DNA of 64,000 nucleotides. Origin: Candidatus Parcubacteria bacterium (GTDB taxonomy: Bacteria > Patescibacteriota > Minisyncoccia > Phycocordibacterales > PALSA-1337). Position 1 is the first letter of the stretch, and each line of letters begins with the position of its first letter. The position numbers and the translations under genes are program-made. Shown one piece after another: positions 17,782 through 29,943 of this stretch. The stretch is taken from contig JBDLTF010000005.1 in the NCBI GenBank assembly GCA_039799225.1, positions 2,884-66,883 of the forward strand. The letters are read 5' to 3'. Under the pieces are notes generated by a model. It saw only the letters and a program-made list of their open reading frames with translations, made no database searches and was not told the DNA's origin.

Positions 17782-18447
17782 TTATCCTAATGTCCATTGA
17801 ATACTAGTAACTTCAAATATATCCCTTTTCAGCTCGCCAATCATTTTGAAAGTATATCTCTGATACTGACTATTTGTTATAACTTTTATAAATTCAGCGA
17901 AAGTATCGTTTTGGTAGCGAGTATTTTGTACGACTGTCGGCATCTTAACTTTCATCGTTTCCATACCTGTTGTCAGCATAAATGTACGAGCATCTATATC
18001 TATACTCTTGATGTCTTTGACAACAACACCAATTTCCTGAATTCCAACCTTATCAGCGCACCACACATAAGGAAGATCAGATGATACTGAATTTGGCCCA
18101 ATTATCATACAAAGGAGATGCCAATTCTCATATGCGTACTCTACACGGTCACCGAAACGAGAAGGTTGAGTCACTTCTCCTATAGTAGCCAATATACGAT
18201 TGGCGACGATTTTCTGCGCAGATGACACCGGAAGCTTGTACCCTGGAATATTTTTGAAACCAGGCTGTGCTTCTATTTTGTAATCAGAATTTGCCTCCTG
18301 TTGAAGATTTTCCAAAATTGATTTTGCTTGTGGACCAGCTGATGATCTTTCATTCTTACTATAAAGATATACACCACCACCTACTACGAGCACTGCAATT
18401 ATTGCTAAAAGAAGTGGTGTAACAAAACCTTTTTGTGGATTTTTCAT
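17782..18447 (-). CDS. hypothetical secreted/membrane-anchored protein (AT-rich gene inserted between ftsW and murG)
   Basis: N-terminal TM/signal (FVTPLLLAIIAVLVVGGGVYLY). About 35% GC against about 50% in the flanking genes. Confidence 0.5.
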   Translation of the reverse strand: MKNPQKGFVTPLLLAIIAVLVVGGGVYLYSKNERSSAGPQAKSILENLQQEANSDYKIEAQPGFKNIPGYKLPVSSAQKIVANRILATIGEVTQPSRFGDRVEYAYENWHLLCMIIGPNSVSSDLPYVWCADKVGIQEIGVVVKDIKSIDIDARTFMLTTGMETMKVKMPTVVQNTRYQNDTFAEFIKVITNSQYQRYTFKMIGELKRDIFEVTSIQWTLG

Positions 18448-20142: not shown

Positions 20143-20864
20143 TAATACCTCGGCACCCCAACATTCTTGGTCTCCATATGAATATCGTCGAACTGCCTTT
20201 CTTGGGTAACGTGCAAGACGCCTTCCTTGACCAGCTCGAGCATCGCCAGGAAGCTCACGATGACATTCACCTTCTCACCTTTATGCTCACCGGTAAATTG
20301 TTTGAAACTCATACGCAGACTACTCGTAATACGATTGGTAAGTGTACCGATCATATCTTCGAGACTGACGACCTTCTGGACCACATGCTTTGGCAGACTC
20401 TCCTTCTTGGGTAGACGATTAATCAAATCTTTGAGCGAGTACAGCGCCTTCTCCAACGTGAATTCTGGCGCAGGGGCGAACACTGGCTGAACCGGTCGTG
20501 TCGCGGATTGTGAGAATATCATTTCAGCGCCAAAGAGTTTGCTGACATGGACACTCGCATCCTTTATGCGTTTAAATATTTTGAGGCGCGTCTCAAGGTC
20601 TTGAATGTCTCCTTTCTCTTCTTCAGTGAGGCTCAATTCAGGCAGAAGTGACTTGGACTTGATGAGAAGAAGCGTCGAAGCAACGAGAATGAAGTGTGCA
20701 GACTCCCCCATTGGCATCTGCTCGAATGAACGGACATGAGCGATGAAGTCATCGGTAACCTTGGCGAGTGAGATGTCACTAATGAAAAGCTTTCTCTTCT
20801 CAATAAGGTCAAGTAGGAGATCGAGAGGACCTTCGAATGACTGAGTTTTGACGGTAAATGCCAT
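20142..20864 (-). CDS. scpA: segregation and condensation protein A
   Basis: FEGPLDLLLDLIEKRKLFISDISLAKVTD is a canonical ScpA N-terminus. Confidence 0.85.
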   Translation of the reverse strand: MAFTVKTQSFEGPLDLLLDLIEKRKLFISDISLAKVTDDFIAHVRSFEQMPMGESAHFILVASTLLLIKSKSLLPELSLTEEEKGDIQDLETRLKIFKRIKDASVHVSKLFGAEMIFSQSATRPVQPVFAPAPEFTLEKALYSLKDLINRLPKKESLPKHVVQKVVSLEDMIGTLTNRITSSLRMSFKQFTGEHKGEKVNVIVSFLAMLELVKEGVLHVTQERQFDDIHMETKNVGVPRY

Positions 20865-20908
20865 GTCCGCATATTATAGCGCATCTTGCTTCCTATCAGA
20901 TATTTCGA

Positions 20909-21151
20909 TTATTTCTCAATAACACAGTCGAATTCTGACACAGTGGTACTGCCTATGAAAAAATAATCTTTAATTAAGATAAACTCACGAATATCTTGGC
21001 ACGCCTTCTCATTCAACGCTTTCTGGATGCGATATTCTCTCCGAGTAATACTATCCGCATATGATATAGATGCGGTAAATACGACTATGACCGAAGCGAT
21101 GCATCCCATAGCAAGCAAGATAATAGCCGTTACAGCCATGAAGCCACTCAT
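20909..21151 (-). CDS. hypothetical small membrane protein (possible minor pseudopilin lacking Glu5)
   Basis: Hydrophobic GFMAVTAIILLAMGCIASVIVVF segment after a short N-region. Start is uncertain: the table start at 21193 overlaps the prepilin ORF. Confidence 0.35.
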   Translation of the reverse strand: MSGFMAVTAIILLAMGCIASVIVVFTASISYADSITRREYRIQKALNEKACQDIREFILIKDYFFIGSTTVSEFDCVIEK

Positions 21152-21161
21152 TGAATTGTAG

Positions 21162-21332
21162 CTAATTCTGTTGCGCATAGTTGATATCATCAAGAAGCGA
21201 AGCGTCCTTCATTTGAATTGAGTATAGAAAATTAATCGTCCCCGCGATTAAGAACGATAGCAGCACGGTATATATCACAACCTCGATTAAGATCATTCCT
21301 TGTGTAGGATTTTTCTTTGAAGAATAAATCAT
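21162..21332 (-). CDS. small prepilin-like protein (56 aa; class III signal G|MILIEV with Glu+5), not in the supplied ORF table
   Basis: Minus-strand ORF MIYSSKKNPTQG|MILIEVVIYTVLLSFLIAG... Its ATG overlaps the stop of the upstream pilin-like gene (ATGA). Confidence 0.45.
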   Translation of the reverse strand: MIYSSKKNPTQGMILIEVVIYTVLLSFLIAGTINFLYSIQMKDASLLDDINYAQQN

Positions 21333-22798
21333 TTGAATGTGACCTCATAGATGATGGGTGCTGTACTCGCCAGAATATAAATCCGATTTCTATCACAAGT
21401 CATTGCTCGTGGTGTACTTGGGAGAGGAAAGGCTGTTGAAGATGTTGCTGACATAGAATAATTGAATACCTGTAATTCTTTTCCGACAGCGCGACTTATA
21501 GCATAGAGGTGAAATCTGTCGACAATGATTCCGTATATTCCACCAACAACATCGACAGACATGTTCAAGGATGGCGTTGGATGTTCAATTGAAGGCACCA
21601 ACCCAGCAAATAGCTCATGGTCATTTTTGATATTAAAACCACCCGATGTCCTGCCTAAGAAAATGGAATCCTCGAATGAGGTCGCTGACTTCCCTTCCTG
21701 ACGTTCCCAGCCAGACAGTTCGAATTCACCTGTAATGAGCGGAGTGCTTGGTTCAGAAATATCTACTGAAATCAGTTGCTCGCGTCCAGCGGTCGCAAGA
21801 TATGCATTTCCCTGTCGCACGAATATGTCTGTGACCTTACTCCCTATTTCAAGCCCACCTATTCGATGAGGTGTAGTAGAGCCTGCCACATCAATAATTG
21901 AAAACTCTTCTCCAATCCACTTTTCAGTTCCAAGGTATATCAATCCATTGTTATAGAATATTGAACTCGCAACCGGTGGCGTCGCGGTCGCATATGGAAG
22001 TGGTACTTGGTATTTGTATTCGAGAATAGGCGTAGCTAAACTATTAAATCGAATAACATGGAGTTGTGCCGCAGTACTCGCTGCAGCCGCGAAGATTTTG
22101 TCTTTGACTAAGGCAATTGAGGCGATTCCCGGACCAGTGTTTATTGAAGAAATTACAGTTGGATTATCATGATCTCTAATATCAGCAGTAAGAAGATCTG
22201 AATCTCCAGCCACGGATGAATCCGTAGAAATATAGGCAACACCATTTCGCACCTCTATATCTGTGAGCGGAAGCAGTGGATCTATAGGTAGTGTAATAGG
22301 AACTATAGACGCAACAAATGGTTTCAATGCTGGATGCTGGAATCCATATGAACCAACAGGATTTGTACTTGAAAAATTAACTGTACACAAAGGAGTTCCG
22401 CGGATTTCTTCCATAGACTCGAATGGGTACGCACGGACCGCATTGAATACAATAGGTCCAACTCGATTCATATATGGAGAATCCACCTCAAGGGAAATAT
22501 CTGTCTCAATTCGATTATTCCCAAACCATCGAGCCAATGCATCTATGGTCGTGGTGCCAAAAGATATACTAGGAGAAATACTAATGCTCCGCGACTCATG
22601 AGGCATCATATCTTCAAATTCACTTTTATGTTCCTCATATAAATTAAGAGCATATTCCCTTTCACGTGCAGTCTCGAACATATCTCGTGCTGATGAAGAT
22701 GCTTGCGCGATGGATGCGACGAACACTGTCCCGAGCGCGAGGGCCAGAAGAATATCAACAAGAATCAATCCTGATTTTTTGTTTGAGCGAGTAATCAT
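21329..22798 (-). CDS. pilin-like N-terminus + beta-propeller (LVIVD/YVTN-like repeats) protein; candidate pilus-associated adhesin
   Basis: N-terminus MITRSNKKSG|LILVDILLALALGT has prepilin-like geometry but Asp at +5. The C-terminal 440 aa has repeated beta-strand-rich units. Directly downstream of pilC and pilB. Confidence 0.55.
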   Translation of the reverse strand: MITRSNKKSGLILVDILLALALGTVFVASIAQASSSARDMFETAREREYALNLYEEHKSEFEDMMPHESRSISISPSISFGTTTIDALARWFGNNRIETDISLEVDSPYMNRVGPIVFNAVRAYPFESMEEIRGTPLCTVNFSSTNPVGSYGFQHPALKPFVASIVPITLPIDPLLPLTDIEVRNGVAYISTDSSVAGDSDLLTADIRDHDNPTVISSINTGPGIASIALVKDKIFAAAASTAAQLHVIRFNSLATPILEYKYQVPLPYATATPPVASSIFYNNGLIYLGTEKWIGEEFSIIDVAGSTTPHRIGGLEIGSKVTDIFVRQGNAYLATAGREQLISVDISEPSTPLITGEFELSGWERQEGKSATSFEDSIFLGRTSGGFNIKNDHELFAGLVPSIEHPTPSLNMSVDVVGGIYGIIVDRFHLYAISRAVGKELQVFNYSMSATSSTAFPLPSTPRAMTCDRNRIYILASTAPIIYEVTFK

Positions 22799-22804
22799 GG
22801 TTTG

Positions 22805-23866
22805 TTAGCGTTGAAGAACTTTCGATATGTCATAGATAGGCATCATGATGGAGAGCGCAATCGCTCCGACCACGATTCCCATGCCAGCCATCATCATGGG
22901 TTCAATGAGTGCTGTGGCACGTTTTAACTTGTGATCAATGTCTCTATCTATGATGTCAGCCGCGCGAACCATCGATTTGCCCAAGTTCCCCGAAGCTTCA
23001 CCGGCTAAGAGAAGCGGTGATACATATGGTGTCTTACGACATATGTTTCGAAGAATTACTCCAAGCGGTATTCCTTTCGATACTTGTTCGGCCTGAGAAT
23101 TCATATGGGAAGCAAGCGTGAGAAGAGAAACCGAAGCTGACGCACGAGTGTATGCGTTGACTGCTGATATTCCAGAATCGATTAATGTTCCACAAGATCT
23201 AAGGAACACAGATAACGAATAGGTATGGATGATATTTCCAATAAGCGGCACGTGAACAATACATATATGCATGATTTTTTTGAATACATGGGTGGTTCGA
23301 TACAGCACCAACGCAACCAATGCGATCGCGAAAATTCCTGCAAAAATAAAAAGTCCGTAGTCGATGAGGTGCTCAGAAATAAACATAACGATGCGGGTGA
23401 GAATTGGCAGATCAACACGAAGACTCTTAAGCATTGGAATAATTTGCGGCATAACTCCTCGCACAAGACCAATTGTGAGAATGCCCGCAAAAGCGCCAAT
23501 GACTACCGGATATGTCAGTGCTGAGAGAGATTTGCGACGAATATCATCTTGTTGTTCCATGAGCATACGTGCCATTGCGAGTGATTGTGCTAAGCCACCC
23601 GATTGTTCACCATGATCGATAAGACCAACAATCATCGGTGGTATGCGTACAGTTGAAGATAGTGACGTGGCGAGAGATGTACCACTAAGAATGCCGTGAT
23701 GCGCACGCATTACTTGTTTGGCTTGATTCTGCTTCATGCCCTGCGCAACTGTCTCGAGAGCTTTGTCGATACTCAAACCTGAAGATACATAAAGTTCTAT
23801 GTGTTCAAAAAGAAGCATGAGATCCCTGCGACGCCAACGCGCTCTATGTATACGAGTCGATGCCAT
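22805..23866 (-). CDS. pilC: type II secretion / type IV pilus platform protein (GspF/PilC family)
   Basis: Polytopic membrane protein with GspF-domain features. Located next to the GspE ATPase. Confidence 0.75.
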   Translation of the reverse strand: MASTRIHRARWRRRDLMLLFEHIELYVSSGLSIDKALETVAQGMKQNQAKQVMRAHHGILSGTSLATSLSSTVRIPPMIVGLIDHGEQSGGLAQSLAMARMLMEQQDDIRRKSLSALTYPVVIGAFAGILTIGLVRGVMPQIIPMLKSLRVDLPILTRIVMFISEHLIDYGLFIFAGIFAIALVALVLYRTTHVFKKIMHICIVHVPLIGNIIHTYSLSVFLRSCGTLIDSGISAVNAYTRASASVSLLTLASHMNSQAEQVSKGIPLGVILRNICRKTPYVSPLLLAGEASGNLGKSMVRAADIIDRDIDHKLKRATALIEPMMMAGMGIVVGAIALSIMMPIYDISKVLQR

Positions 23867-23870
23867 ATAC

Positions 23871-25013
23871 TCAATCAGCTAATACTCGAGCAACTTCTTG
23901 CTCTGTGGTAATTCCCCATTCCACTTTCTCGTGACCATCCTCACTCATAGGAACAAAACCTGCTGATTTTGCATACGCGAGCATGCTGGCAGAGCTCGAA
24001 CGCTCAACAATAAGTTCCTTCAATCCCGCGTCGACCGCGCAGGCTTCTGCAATCACAGATCTCCCGTTATATCCCGTATGTCGACACCTATCACATCCAT
24101 CTAATAAGCACTCTCGACACATGGCGCGGACCAACCGTTGAGCAACGACGAGACGAAGCGTGGATGCGAGAAGATACGGATCAACACCCATATCCATGAG
24201 GCGTGGAATTGCTTCGAGCGCAGAATTGGTATGTATTGTCGACAGCACAAGATGTCCCGTGAGTGCAGTATGAATAGCAACGCGCGCAGTTTCAGCATCA
24301 CGAATCTCACCAACCATGATGACATCAGGATCTTGTCGCAACGCTGAACGGAGACCTGAAGCGAAGGTCACTCCATGACTGTGTCGAATATGTACCTGAC
24401 GAACGAGTGGTATCTCATACTCGACTGGATCTTCAAGAGTGATTATGGATATGGGCTCGCGAGATTTGAGAGACAGACATGAATGAAGTGTCGTCGTCTT
24501 CCCCGAACCAGTCGGACCAGACACGAGAATGAGTCCAGATGCTTGTGCGAGTGCACCATCGATTGCACGAACATGGTCCGGCGTGAATCCGAGCTTGGCG
24601 AAAGACACTTCCGACGATATGCGTGCAGGCAGAAGACGTATGACAGCATTCTCACCATGATATGTAGGCATGAATGAGATGCGTATATTGTAATCATCGC
24701 CAGATATCTCAGACTTCCATCTCCCATCCTGCGGAACAGCATGTATATCTGTACGTGCACCCGAAAGTATTTTGAGACGTGCGATGATTTCCTCATGGAG
24801 CCTGCGTGACATGAGCGCCACTTCCTCGACCTGACCATCTATACGAAGACGTATACGGACACCGTCCTCAAATGGATCATAGTGAACATCCGAAGCACGC
24901 ACCGAAGCAGCATATGAAAGGAATGCATCTATAGCTTCTGTTGCCGTGGATGGCTCGTGGTCGAAGATTTTTTGTGCTGATTTTCCGATTATTTCTTGTG
25001 TGTTCATGGACAC
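23871..25013 (-). CDS. pilB: type II/IV secretion ATPase (GspE/PilB family)
   Basis: Walker A VSGPTGSGKTT, Asp/His boxes, tetracysteine CRECLLDGCDRCRHTGY zinc motif. Start is either GTG at 25013 or ATG at 25007. Confidence 0.9.
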   Translation of the reverse strand: MSMNTQEIIGKSAQKIFDHEPSTATEAIDAFLSYAASVRASDVHYDPFEDGVRIRLRIDGQVEEVALMSRRLHEEIIARLKILSGARTDIHAVPQDGRWKSEISGDDYNIRISFMPTYHGENAVIRLLPARISSEVSFAKLGFTPDHVRAIDGALAQASGLILVSGPTGSGKTTTLHSCLSLKSREPISIITLEDPVEYEIPLVRQVHIRHSHGVTFASGLRSALRQDPDVIMVGEIRDAETARVAIHTALTGHLVLSTIHTNSALEAIPRLMDMGVDPYLLASTLRLVVAQRLVRAMCRECLLDGCDRCRHTGYNGRSVIAEACAVDAGLKELIVERSSSASMLAYAKSAGFVPMSEDGHEKVEWGITTEQEVARVLAD

Positions 25014-28974: not shown

Positions 28975-29943
28975 TCAGAGAGGATAATACATGTCGAGGG
29001 CGTTGCGAATCTGGATGCCGGATGCGATGCATACCTCAATATTGTGCACCGACTTTAACAAATGTTGCAACGAATCAATCACATCAATCCTCGTTGGATC
29101 CTCGATAGCAATCGTCAGATTACCACCATGGACCATGATAGGAACAATGTTATACCTGCGAGCTATCACTCGAGGAACAATGGCGATAACATCGTCAGGA
29201 ATATTCAGCTTTCCAGGTGCGACCACTTCGCACCCAAAATGAGCACCGTTTGCAGTGAGGACTTGCTCCTCCGTGATAACTTCCTTTTCGAGCAAGGCGG
29301 CAACGGCATCTTTCTCACCATCAGCTGTCGCTGACACAATTTCAGCGACCTGGTCACCCGTGATGAACCCGAGATCAATGAGAATGTGTACAAGATAGTC
29401 CCTGTTACCAGGATTGAAAACATGCGGCTTAGATTTCTGGTAATCAGCAATCTCCCTCGCATCGAACAGGATTGCTTTCCAAGTCGTATGTTCTGCGTTA
29501 GTCGGAATCATCCGCACAACGCCCGCTTTCGCAAGCTCGATAATCTTGCCACCCCATCCTGATGGAATAAACAGAGTATGACCTTGCATGATGCGTTCTG
29601 GCAAACCTTCACCATCATGAATCTCGAACTCCCTCCCCAGCGGAGCCGGAACTGAGAGTATACTGATCCACGTCGGATATTCACCCTGGAACTCCAAGAA
29701 TTCAAGGAATGAAGTAAAATCAACACCGAAAAAACCTCCTTTGATGCGTCCCTTCGTCGCAAACTGATGAGCGATGCGATTGATAATCTTCATTACATCT
29801 TGGACTTGATACCACCCCCAATCCCCGTATCTTTTCTCAGGAATGAGCTGGGATAGTTCTCTAAACCGATACACTTCGGGGGCTACAACCTCAGGCCACG
29901 GGACATCTAACAACCGATGCACTAATACTTTTGGTTTTTTCAT
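28975..29943 (-). CDS. protein with C-terminal GspE N-terminal (MshEN-type) domain and an unknown N-domain
   Basis: C-terminal PRVIARRYNIVPIMVHGGNLTIAIEDPTRIDVIDSLQHLL matches the T2SSE_N/MshEN fold signature. No ATPase domain. Confidence 0.6.
   Translation of the reverse strand: MKKPKVLVHRLLDVPWPEVVAPEVYRFRELSQLIPEKRYGDWGWYQVQDVMKIINRIAHQFATKGRIKGGFFGVDFTSFLEFLEFQGEYPTWISILSVPAPLGREFEIHDGEGLPERIMQGHTLFIPSGWGGKIIELAKAGVVRMIPTNAEHTTWKAILFDAREIADYQKSKPHVFNPGNRDYLVHILIDLGFITGDQVAEIVSATADGEKDAVAALLEKEVITEEQVLTANGAHFGCEVVAPGKLNIPDDVIAIVPRVIARRYNIVPIMVHGGNLTIAIEDPTRIDVIDSLQHLLKSVHNIEVCIASGIQIRNALDMYYPL

Follow-up and report, generated by a model that had tools for sequence, protein, structure and literature searches.

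A candidate propeller-bearing minor pilin encoded after a short pilB–pilC pair in Parcubacteria

In Nanosynbacter lyticus TM7x (Saccharibacteria), the minor pilin PilX2 of the T4P-2 system carries a seven-bladed propeller composed of RCC1 repeats; it has been proposed to be a tip adhesin, and its deletion halves host binding while filaments remain (PMC11623550). Modular pilins have also been described in Streptococcus sanguinis, in which PilB carries a vWA module and PilC a lectin module (PMC8179133, PMC9934059). A census found such proteins to be widespread, with many in ultrasmall bacteria and one that contains 12 copies of IPR013211 (PMC8179133). Here we examine a protein of 489 amino acids (aa) encoded in a 64,000-nucleotide (nt) stretch of DNA from a Candidatus Parcubacteria bacterium (contig JBDLTF010000005.1; the whole stretch is termed the window), and propose that it is a pilin of this general design with a propeller of another class.

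Of the uncultivated ultrasmall bacteria, Paceibacteria and Parcubacteria count among the most abundant; to our knowledge, the mechanism by which they attach to or feed from partners is not known. The source organism is probably itself ultrasmall and host-dependent. Our analysis proposes a concrete, testable role for a widespread family of 'hypothetical' proteins that has 63 species representatives.

A pilin-like module joined to a seven-bladed propeller

An earlier note, made from the sequence alone, had placed a 489-aa open reading frame (ORF) at this position and quoted its N-terminus. Both were borne out, and the gene lies on the minus strand, which had not been stated. The protein begins with MITRSNKKSGLILVDILLALALGTVFV, that is, MITRSNKKSG↓LILVD (the arrow marks the predicted cleavage site), and is identical to RLY66_442, annotated as 'hypothetical protein' in a Candidatus Parcubacteria metagenome-assembled genome. 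The gene and its predicted parts are as follows.

21329–22798 (including the stop codon), minus strand: gene for the bimodular pilin-like protein, 489 aa, ATG start
22769–22798, minus strand: leader peptide, residues 1–10 (MITRSNKKSG), with a conserved Gly at −1
22616–22768, minus strand: alpha-1 helix, residues 11–61, hydrophobic in its first part, with Asp15 at +5
22394–22615, minus strand: small pilin-head module, residues 62–135, a four-stranded antiparallel sheet with a WYGNDRIET motif
22313–22393, minus strand: linker, residues 136–162, carrying the invariant Cys138
21332–22312, minus strand: seven-bladed LVIVD-type beta-propeller, residues 163–489

An AlphaFold2 model built from an alignment of 39 sequences was of high confidence (predicted local distance difference test (pLDDT) 88.9; predicted template modelling score (pTM) 0.84). 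In this model, an N-terminal helix of 55 residues (7–61; block-mean pLDDT of 81–93 over residues 11–61) leads into a sheet spanning residues 69–123, with strands at 69–74, 83–92, 96–105 and 116–123 and two residues, G93 and N94, that are invariant in the family. The same helix-plus-sheet module was obtained when residues 1–135 were modelled separately (pLDDT 89.3), and the prediction is not that of a bare signal anchor, the result that the earlier note had named as refuting. The remainder forms 28 strands in seven groups of four (residues 163–488). A beta-rich LVIVD propeller had been anticipated in the earlier note and is supported here, but its extent is about 330 aa (approximately residues 163–489) and not the roughly 440 aa suggested, because residues 11–135 form a separate pilin-like module. 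With a pilin-like module (1–135) followed by an LVIVD propeller (163–489), the protein has the make-up of a modular pilin.

The Pfam LVIVD profile (PF08309) scores 16.1 bits on the window protein, under its cut-off of 20.2 bits; it matches 30 of the 39 family members (best E = 2.2e-12), with divergent members reaching 61 bits. IPR013211, the entry found in 12 copies in the census protein, is presumably the LVIVD repeat entry. A Foldseek search of the full model against the PDB returned only generic seven- and eight-bladed propellers (E of about 1e-9, 9–14% identity), among them Nup43, beta-TrCP, Tako8, the virginiamycin B (Vgb) lyase and BamB, and the family profile had no match among PDB sequences. 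The only cysteines invariant in the family are C138, in the linker, and C468, within blade 7; a disulfide between them may staple the linker to that blade.

One resemblance was rejected. Against the PDB, the N-domain profile produced no matches but weak ones between its conserved WYGNDRIET motif and the WFGNKRIR recognition helix of the PBX/Extradenticle homeodomains (E of 0.015–0.18), which we judge to be a coincidence; the corresponding motif in the window protein is WFGNNRIET (residues 91–99, positions 22502–22528).

Sequence searches yielded 228 homologues with 36–67% identity over their full length, all from Patescibacteria and essentially all unnamed or 'hypothetical'. A profile search of 1.84 billion cluster representatives recovered a full-length family of about 420–530 aa followed by a tail of giant LVIVD-repeat proteins, and, clustered at 90% identity, the family numbers more than 200 protein clusters. 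When one genome was scanned for each species, 63 loci emerged, all in bins assigned to Paceibacterota, Parcubacteria, Taylorbacteria or Minisyncoccia. Several TPA_asm records (L005, L007, L009, L013, L014 and others) are titled 'uncultured Candidatus Saccharibacteria bacterium'; BipA in these bins is 90–97% identical to that of the window and the gene order is common to both, and the labels are probably generic or wrong.

A probable prepilin signal with aspartate at +5

The earlier note had pointed to a prepilin-like geometry of leader, Gly and hydrophobic helix, with Asp at +5, and its recurrence across the family shows that it did not arise as a chance match. The window protein has a short basic leader, Gly at −1 and then a hydrophobic stretch (MITRSNKKSG↓LILVDILLALALGTVFVASIA). 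Among 215 family proteins surveyed (39 truncated or unresolved), 176 have a hydrophobic stretch and, at +5, an acidic residue, and Gly occupies −1 in every one of the 158 that have a called leader. The other 18 of the 176 are called from a Met at +1 (MILVD...) and have lost the leader; P0019, P0037, P0050 and P0064 are examples. In the one case checked (L002, 9950–10010), an in-frame upstream ATG that overlaps the end of pilC gives back a basic leader ending in GG, MTYRRRSSADRGG↓MILLD. These +1-Met starts appear to reflect a systematic error in gene calling, by which the prepilin signal is concealed.

The leader is basic and hypervariable in both length and sequence, with a mean identity of 19%, compared with 48% for the mature N-terminal helix. 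An invariant Gly between a hypervariable leader and a conserved helix speaks for a cleavage site and against a mere anchor. The residue at +5 is Asp in 149 family proteins, a core clade in which it is fixed, and Glu in the 27 most divergent; D15 is conserved at 90% or more. Divergent members with Glu at +5 often have textbook signals (NRG↓FLTVE, MKSG↓FILIE and ESG↓FSTLE), and the member with G↓FLTVE (L056) is located in the same kind of operon. Glu at +5 is near-universal in type IV pilins, although it is missing from GspK and some other accepted minor pilins. In TcpB, a large minor pilin of the tip, the E5D substitution is near wild type (PMC5207764). Alignment of the family with the canonical 156-aa pilin of the operon (hhalign; P = 2e-4, 46% probability, 61 alpha-1 columns) placed leader, Gly and +5 in register, with Asp at +5 on Glu at +5.

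Three results weigh against assigning the protein to the pilins. The N_methyl (PF07963) and TIGR02532 profiles had no match in the window protein at E ≤ 1; Foldseek retrieved no solved pilin for the N-terminal module; and the residue at +1 is Leu, Ile or Met and not Phe. Of ten divergent members, only P0206 reached the TIGR02532 cut-off (16.4 bits against 16.3), and its N_methyl score (18.3) stayed under 21.2. Divergent members also gave weak matches to ComGE, GspH and GspI (E = 0.002–0.016, under the cut-offs and confined to the N-terminus).

The three results suit an alternative in which the protein is an uncleaved, signal-anchored membrane protein and its propeller an envelope-spanning assembly part that replaces PilM, PilN, PilO and PilQ. 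Asp in place of Glu at +5 and the failure of the prepilin hidden Markov models are what such an anchor would give, no alignment or secretin genes were found in the operon, and the rate of evolution of the protein is close to that of PilC. Against it stand the invariant Gly exactly at the boundary between leader and helix, the textbook G↓FxxxE signals of divergent members, the 55-residue helix followed by a pilin-like sheet, and an N-terminus in register with that of a canonical pilin. We consider an uncleaved anchor to be very unlikely. Judged by its sequence, the N-terminus is in all likelihood a prepilin signal and the protein a pilin, and a prepilin peptidase would presumably remove the leader after Gly10.

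Because the standard profiles miss the window protein, the family has so far gone without a pilin annotation, and Asp instead of Glu at +5 accounts for a conserved operon of five to six genes having gone unnoticed by them. With no IPR012902 or N_methyl match, the family would also have escaped the modular-pilin census, which suggests that censuses based on IPR012902 undercount modular pilins. The family adds a natural clade with Asp at +5 to the catalogue of pilin signals.

Operon, propeller face and proposed role

The gene had been described as directly following pilB (GspE) and pilC (GspF), with a mini-prepilin and another small protein after it, and this arrangement is present. Genes with Pfam T2SSE and T2SSF matches lie directly 5′ of the 489-aa gene on the same strand, and ORFs of 56 and 94 aa follow it.

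23871–25013, minus strand: short PilB/GspE-type assembly ATPase, 380 aa; Pfam T2SSE E = 1.3e-108, residues 25–376
22805–23866, minus strand: PilC/GspF-type platform protein, 353 aa; Pfam T2SSF E = 2e-37, two repeats
21162–21332, minus strand: helix-only mini-pilin, 56 aa, MIYSSKKNPTQG↓MILIEVV; N_methyl E = 0.0027
20909–21193, minus strand: pilin-like protein (p94), 94 aa, MSG↓FMAVTAIILLAM; two conserved cysteines

The ATPase lacks the N-terminal MshEN/N1 domain and carries a CxxC...CxxC motif; among NCBIfam models it scored highest with GspE (400.7 bits), followed by PilB (371.7) and ComGA (242.8), and missed every equivalog cut-off. The platform protein scored 202 bits with GspF and 133 bits with ComGB. 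The mini-pilin has a canonical class III signal (TQG↓MILIE, Glu at +5), and the mature part of p94 starts with an N-terminus that lacks an acidic residue at +5 (MSG↓FMAVT); the real start codon of p94 may be the ATG at 21190 or that at 21178. This N-terminus resembles those of GspK, ComGG and PilX, subunits thought to be topmost in a filament. The stop codon of the 489-aa gene overlaps the start codon of the mini-pilin gene (ATGA), and the mini-pilin and 94-aa ORFs share 32 nt, which points to translational coupling. Promoter and terminator scans yielded no excess of sites over shuffled controls. Downstream in the window come scpA, scpB, ftsW and murG.

Co-location with pilB and pilC, a check set in the earlier note, is close to complete: among 66 related loci, the short PilB gene directly precedes the family's pair on its own strand in 64 and the PilC gene does so in 65, the missing cases being contigs that end too early upstream. 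By tblastn, p94 lies downstream in 60 of the 66 loci, with the consensus (K/R)G↓F(I/M)A(L/T)xAVxLLA ... RREhRIQ ... C ... C. The mini-pilin was seen in 39 of the 66 loci by the same method, which is weakly sensitive for so short a protein and missed the L056 copy; its family is helix-only, with about 45 mature residues and the consensus (R/N)G↓MTLIEV..LLS. A highly conserved canonical pilin of 156–165 aa, (K/R)G↓FTLIEVLVVIGIIA...STGELTPTISVTR, ends the operon in 23 of the 66 (for example, L002 11820–12290 and L056 7646–8143). In the window and its closest relatives, scpA takes its place (window positions 20864–20909).

A regular-expression scan found just two prepilin-type N-termini in the window and, together with tblastn using the relatives' pilin, no canonical 156-aa pilin anywhere in the 64 kb, so the major subunit must be encoded elsewhere in the genome. 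In line with the earlier statement that pilD, pilM/N/O/Q and pilT are absent from the window, Pfam searches of all non-nested window ORFs of at least 150 aa found no Peptidase_A24 (PilD), PilT, PilM/N/O or secretin domains. A crude prepilin-peptidase motif scan gave no match in the window or in the 66 related loci, for the stretches covered.

The propeller is the most conserved region of the protein, with a mean identity of 54% compared with 36% for the pilin head. All 39 homologues have an acidic propeller (median net charge −12; pI 4.9). In several blades, the loops between strands 1 and 2 and between strands 3 and 4 hold the most conserved residues; if the loops are placed as modelled, these residues would share one face of the propeller. 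The conserved motifs (NTGPG, TEKWxGxE, SGWERQEGK, RTSGGFN and DSxxxxDxD) vary between blades, an indication of one composite site and not of a repeated lectin site. The acidity shared by all 39 homologues is the reason for rejecting a DNA receptor of the ComP, FimT or ComZ type as the leading model. Acidity combined with the highest conservation in the protein speaks against both a DNA receptor and a host-specific adhesin that diversifies rapidly. As far as the sequences indicate, this pattern points to a ligand that is itself conserved, either a common glycan or envelope component or the like, or else a conserved protein partner.

A composite site of this kind could also be catalytic, in which case the propeller would be a surface enzyme, such as a lyase or hydrolase of partner cell-wall polymers, carried outward by the pilin module. 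Single blades hold many invariant residues (Asp, Glu, Arg, Lys, Trp and Tyr) without a counterpart in the other blades, as would suit a single composite site, and the seven-bladed virginiamycin B lyase is among the Foldseek matches (target-normalised TM-score 0.76). However, no enzyme family matched the sequence in Pfam, NCBIfam or the PDB, the Foldseek matches are generic propellers, and no catalytic motif was identified. We find an enzymatic role hardly credible.

We propose instead that the protein is probably a bimodular minor pilin that primes and caps a compact type IV filament, with its propeller placed at the tip and binding a ligand; we infer both of these last features. The leader would be cut after Gly10 by a prepilin peptidase from another part of the genome. 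The 489-aa protein, the mini-pilin and p94 would then assemble on the PilC platform, packing by their alpha-1 helices into a priming complex, below which the short PilB ATPase would polymerise the 156-aa major pilin. Addition of the major pilin beneath the priming complex would leave the propeller at the filament tip. There one propeller face, which would hold almost every invariant polar or aromatic residue, would bind a conserved ligand, most likely either a partner cell's glycan or envelope component or a protein partner within the tip complex. Of the pilus-presented adhesin suggested in the earlier note, the pilin–propeller design is thus supported, tip location and adhesive activity are plausible extensions of it, and the conservation does not fit a rapidly diversifying host-specific adhesin. 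The unusually conserved propeller should be makeable as a soluble domain (approximately residues 136–489), which makes ligand screening feasible.

The operon and the propeller also bear on whether the protein is a structural pilin, its propeller serving, in the manner of the conserved C-terminal propeller of PilY1, as a cap or priming plug of a Com-like pseudopilus for DNA or nutrient uptake through the wall, and not as a partner-cell adhesin. The compact, ComG-like gene order (a short ATPase without its N-terminal domain and a short platform protein, then pilins) is consistent with such a role, as are the failure to find PilM/N/O and PilT nearby, the weak ComGE, GspH and GspI matches of divergent members, and a propeller more conserved than the pilin head, as expected of a machine part. 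Yet the ComGA (242.8 bits; cut-off 300) and ComGB (133.2; cut-off 240) scores lie below those for GspE/PilB and GspF, and a net charge of −12 with a pI of 4.9 makes direct DNA binding by the propeller unlikely. Moreover, the PilY1 profile has no Pfam match and PilY1 lies outside the top 50 Foldseek matches, and the conserved polar and aromatic loop residues in several blades look more like a ligand site than a passive cap. We regard a purely structural cap as rather unlikely.

A bolder form of the tip-pilin proposal takes the operon to be a self-contained, minimal type IV machine specific to Paceibacteria, with a short ATPase, a platform, an obligate three-part cap and one pilin but no PilM, PilN, PilO or PilT, in which the hyper-conserved, single-site propeller recognises a universal ligand and may be the main attachment or capture device of the lineage. 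We consider this quite unlikely; if it were true, fused cap subunits would represent a mode of processing or topology not described for type IV pilins.

Fusion of the mini-pilin and p94 into a single ORF of 132–165 aa was observed in 7 of the 63 species loci (L009 7461–7859, L014 7463–7867, L006, L008, L013, L016 and L040), and is the most unusual observation of the analysis. The fused ORF has two tandem prepilin-type sites, RG↓MTLIE ... KG↓FVATT, both invariant in nine sequences from independent assemblies. Were the first helix to insert with a cytoplasmic N-terminus, the second site would point to the exterior and away from the prepilin peptidase. An internal Met some ten residues ahead of the second site, present in most fused forms, could permit separate initiation.

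Three further regions of the window were recorded. A 322-aa ORF (28975–29943, minus strand), about 4 kb upstream of the operon on the same strand, has a C-terminal MshEN domain (Pfam E = 1.4e-15), which is the N-terminal domain of PilB/MshE that the 380-aa PilB of the operon lacks. The MshEN domain of MshE binds cyclic di-GMP, and the ORF could be a separate regulatory partner of the short PilB; as regards a split-off PilB N-terminus, no such ORF lies within ±6 kb of the operon in relatives. Between 12997 and 15769 (minus strand) lie four consecutive genes, for a trypsin-like protease, a Zn_ribbon_15 protein, a TPR protein and a 161-aa protein. Each has a zinc-ribbon motif (CxxCG...CxxCG) at its start, except the second, which merely contains it, and in most a membrane helix follows; the G+C content of this stretch is 0.35–0.40 compared with about 0.47 for the window. 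Between ftsW and murG, a 221-aa ORF (17782–18447, minus strand) without a Pfam match begins MKNPQKG↓FVTPLLLAIIAVLVVGG, a loose likeness to a prepilin signal that lacks the acidic residue at +5. This N-terminus is probably a mere signal anchor, and the product is perhaps a divisome protein.

Comparison with known pilins

PilX2 is alike in coming from ultrasmall Patescibacteria, in joining an N-terminal pilin helix to a C-terminal seven-bladed propeller and in having a signal that standard predictors miss. It differs, by its description, in the class of repeat: RCC1 there and LVIVD-type here, with no RCC1 Pfam match in the window protein or its 39 relatives. The genomic settings differ too, because PilX2 is encoded in a pilin-only locus apart from pilB2, pilC2 and pilMNO2, whereas the window gene directly follows a short pilB–pilC pair without pilMNO.

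The S. sanguinis pilins PilB and PilC share with the window protein a small pilin module with a class III signal that carries a bulky functional module, a mass of about 50 kDa and a presumed exposure at the tip. Their grafted domains are other ones, they have Glu at +5 where the window protein has Asp, and their modules are joined by a flexible loop, whereas the window module appears to be rigidly packed (pTM 0.84).

The PilY1/PilC proteins of type IVa pili (Pseudomonas, Neisseria and Myxococcus) likewise bring a conserved seven-bladed propeller to the tip, alongside minor pilins, priming assembly and mediating adhesion. PilY1 is not itself a pilin and docks on a minor-pilin complex, whereas the window propeller is fused to a pilin module. 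Membership of the PilY1 family (PF05567, IPR008707) was rejected, as there was no Pfam match at E ≤ 1 and PilY1 was not in the top 50 Foldseek matches in the PDB; the resemblance is one of functional analogy and not of family membership.

In the GspK–GspI–GspJ complex of the type II secretion system (T2SS) and in ComGD–ComGG of monoderm Com systems, about three minor pilins are encoded together, one bulky, one small and one without an acidic residue at +5, and these complexes are thought to cap and prime the filament, as proposed for the window trio. In the T2SS it is the bulky GspK that lacks Glu5, whereas the bulky window subunit keeps an Asp and the small 94-aa protein lacks the acidic residue. 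TcpB and CofB (T4b) and ComZ (Thermus) are, similarly, large initiator pilins of the tip with extra C-terminal beta domains, but these domains are of other kinds and none of the three proteins matches the window family in sequence. The beta-solenoid of ComZ is linked to DNA binding, and the acidity of the window propeller argues against a ComZ-like DNA receptor.

Taken together, the joining of a pilin to a propeller is a design already known from related bacteria, of which the window gene is a previously unannotated example. Its family is set apart from known propeller-bearing and modular pilins by another class of propeller, by a fixed Asp at +5, by its embedding between pilB–pilC and a mini-pilin, and by its unusually high conservation.

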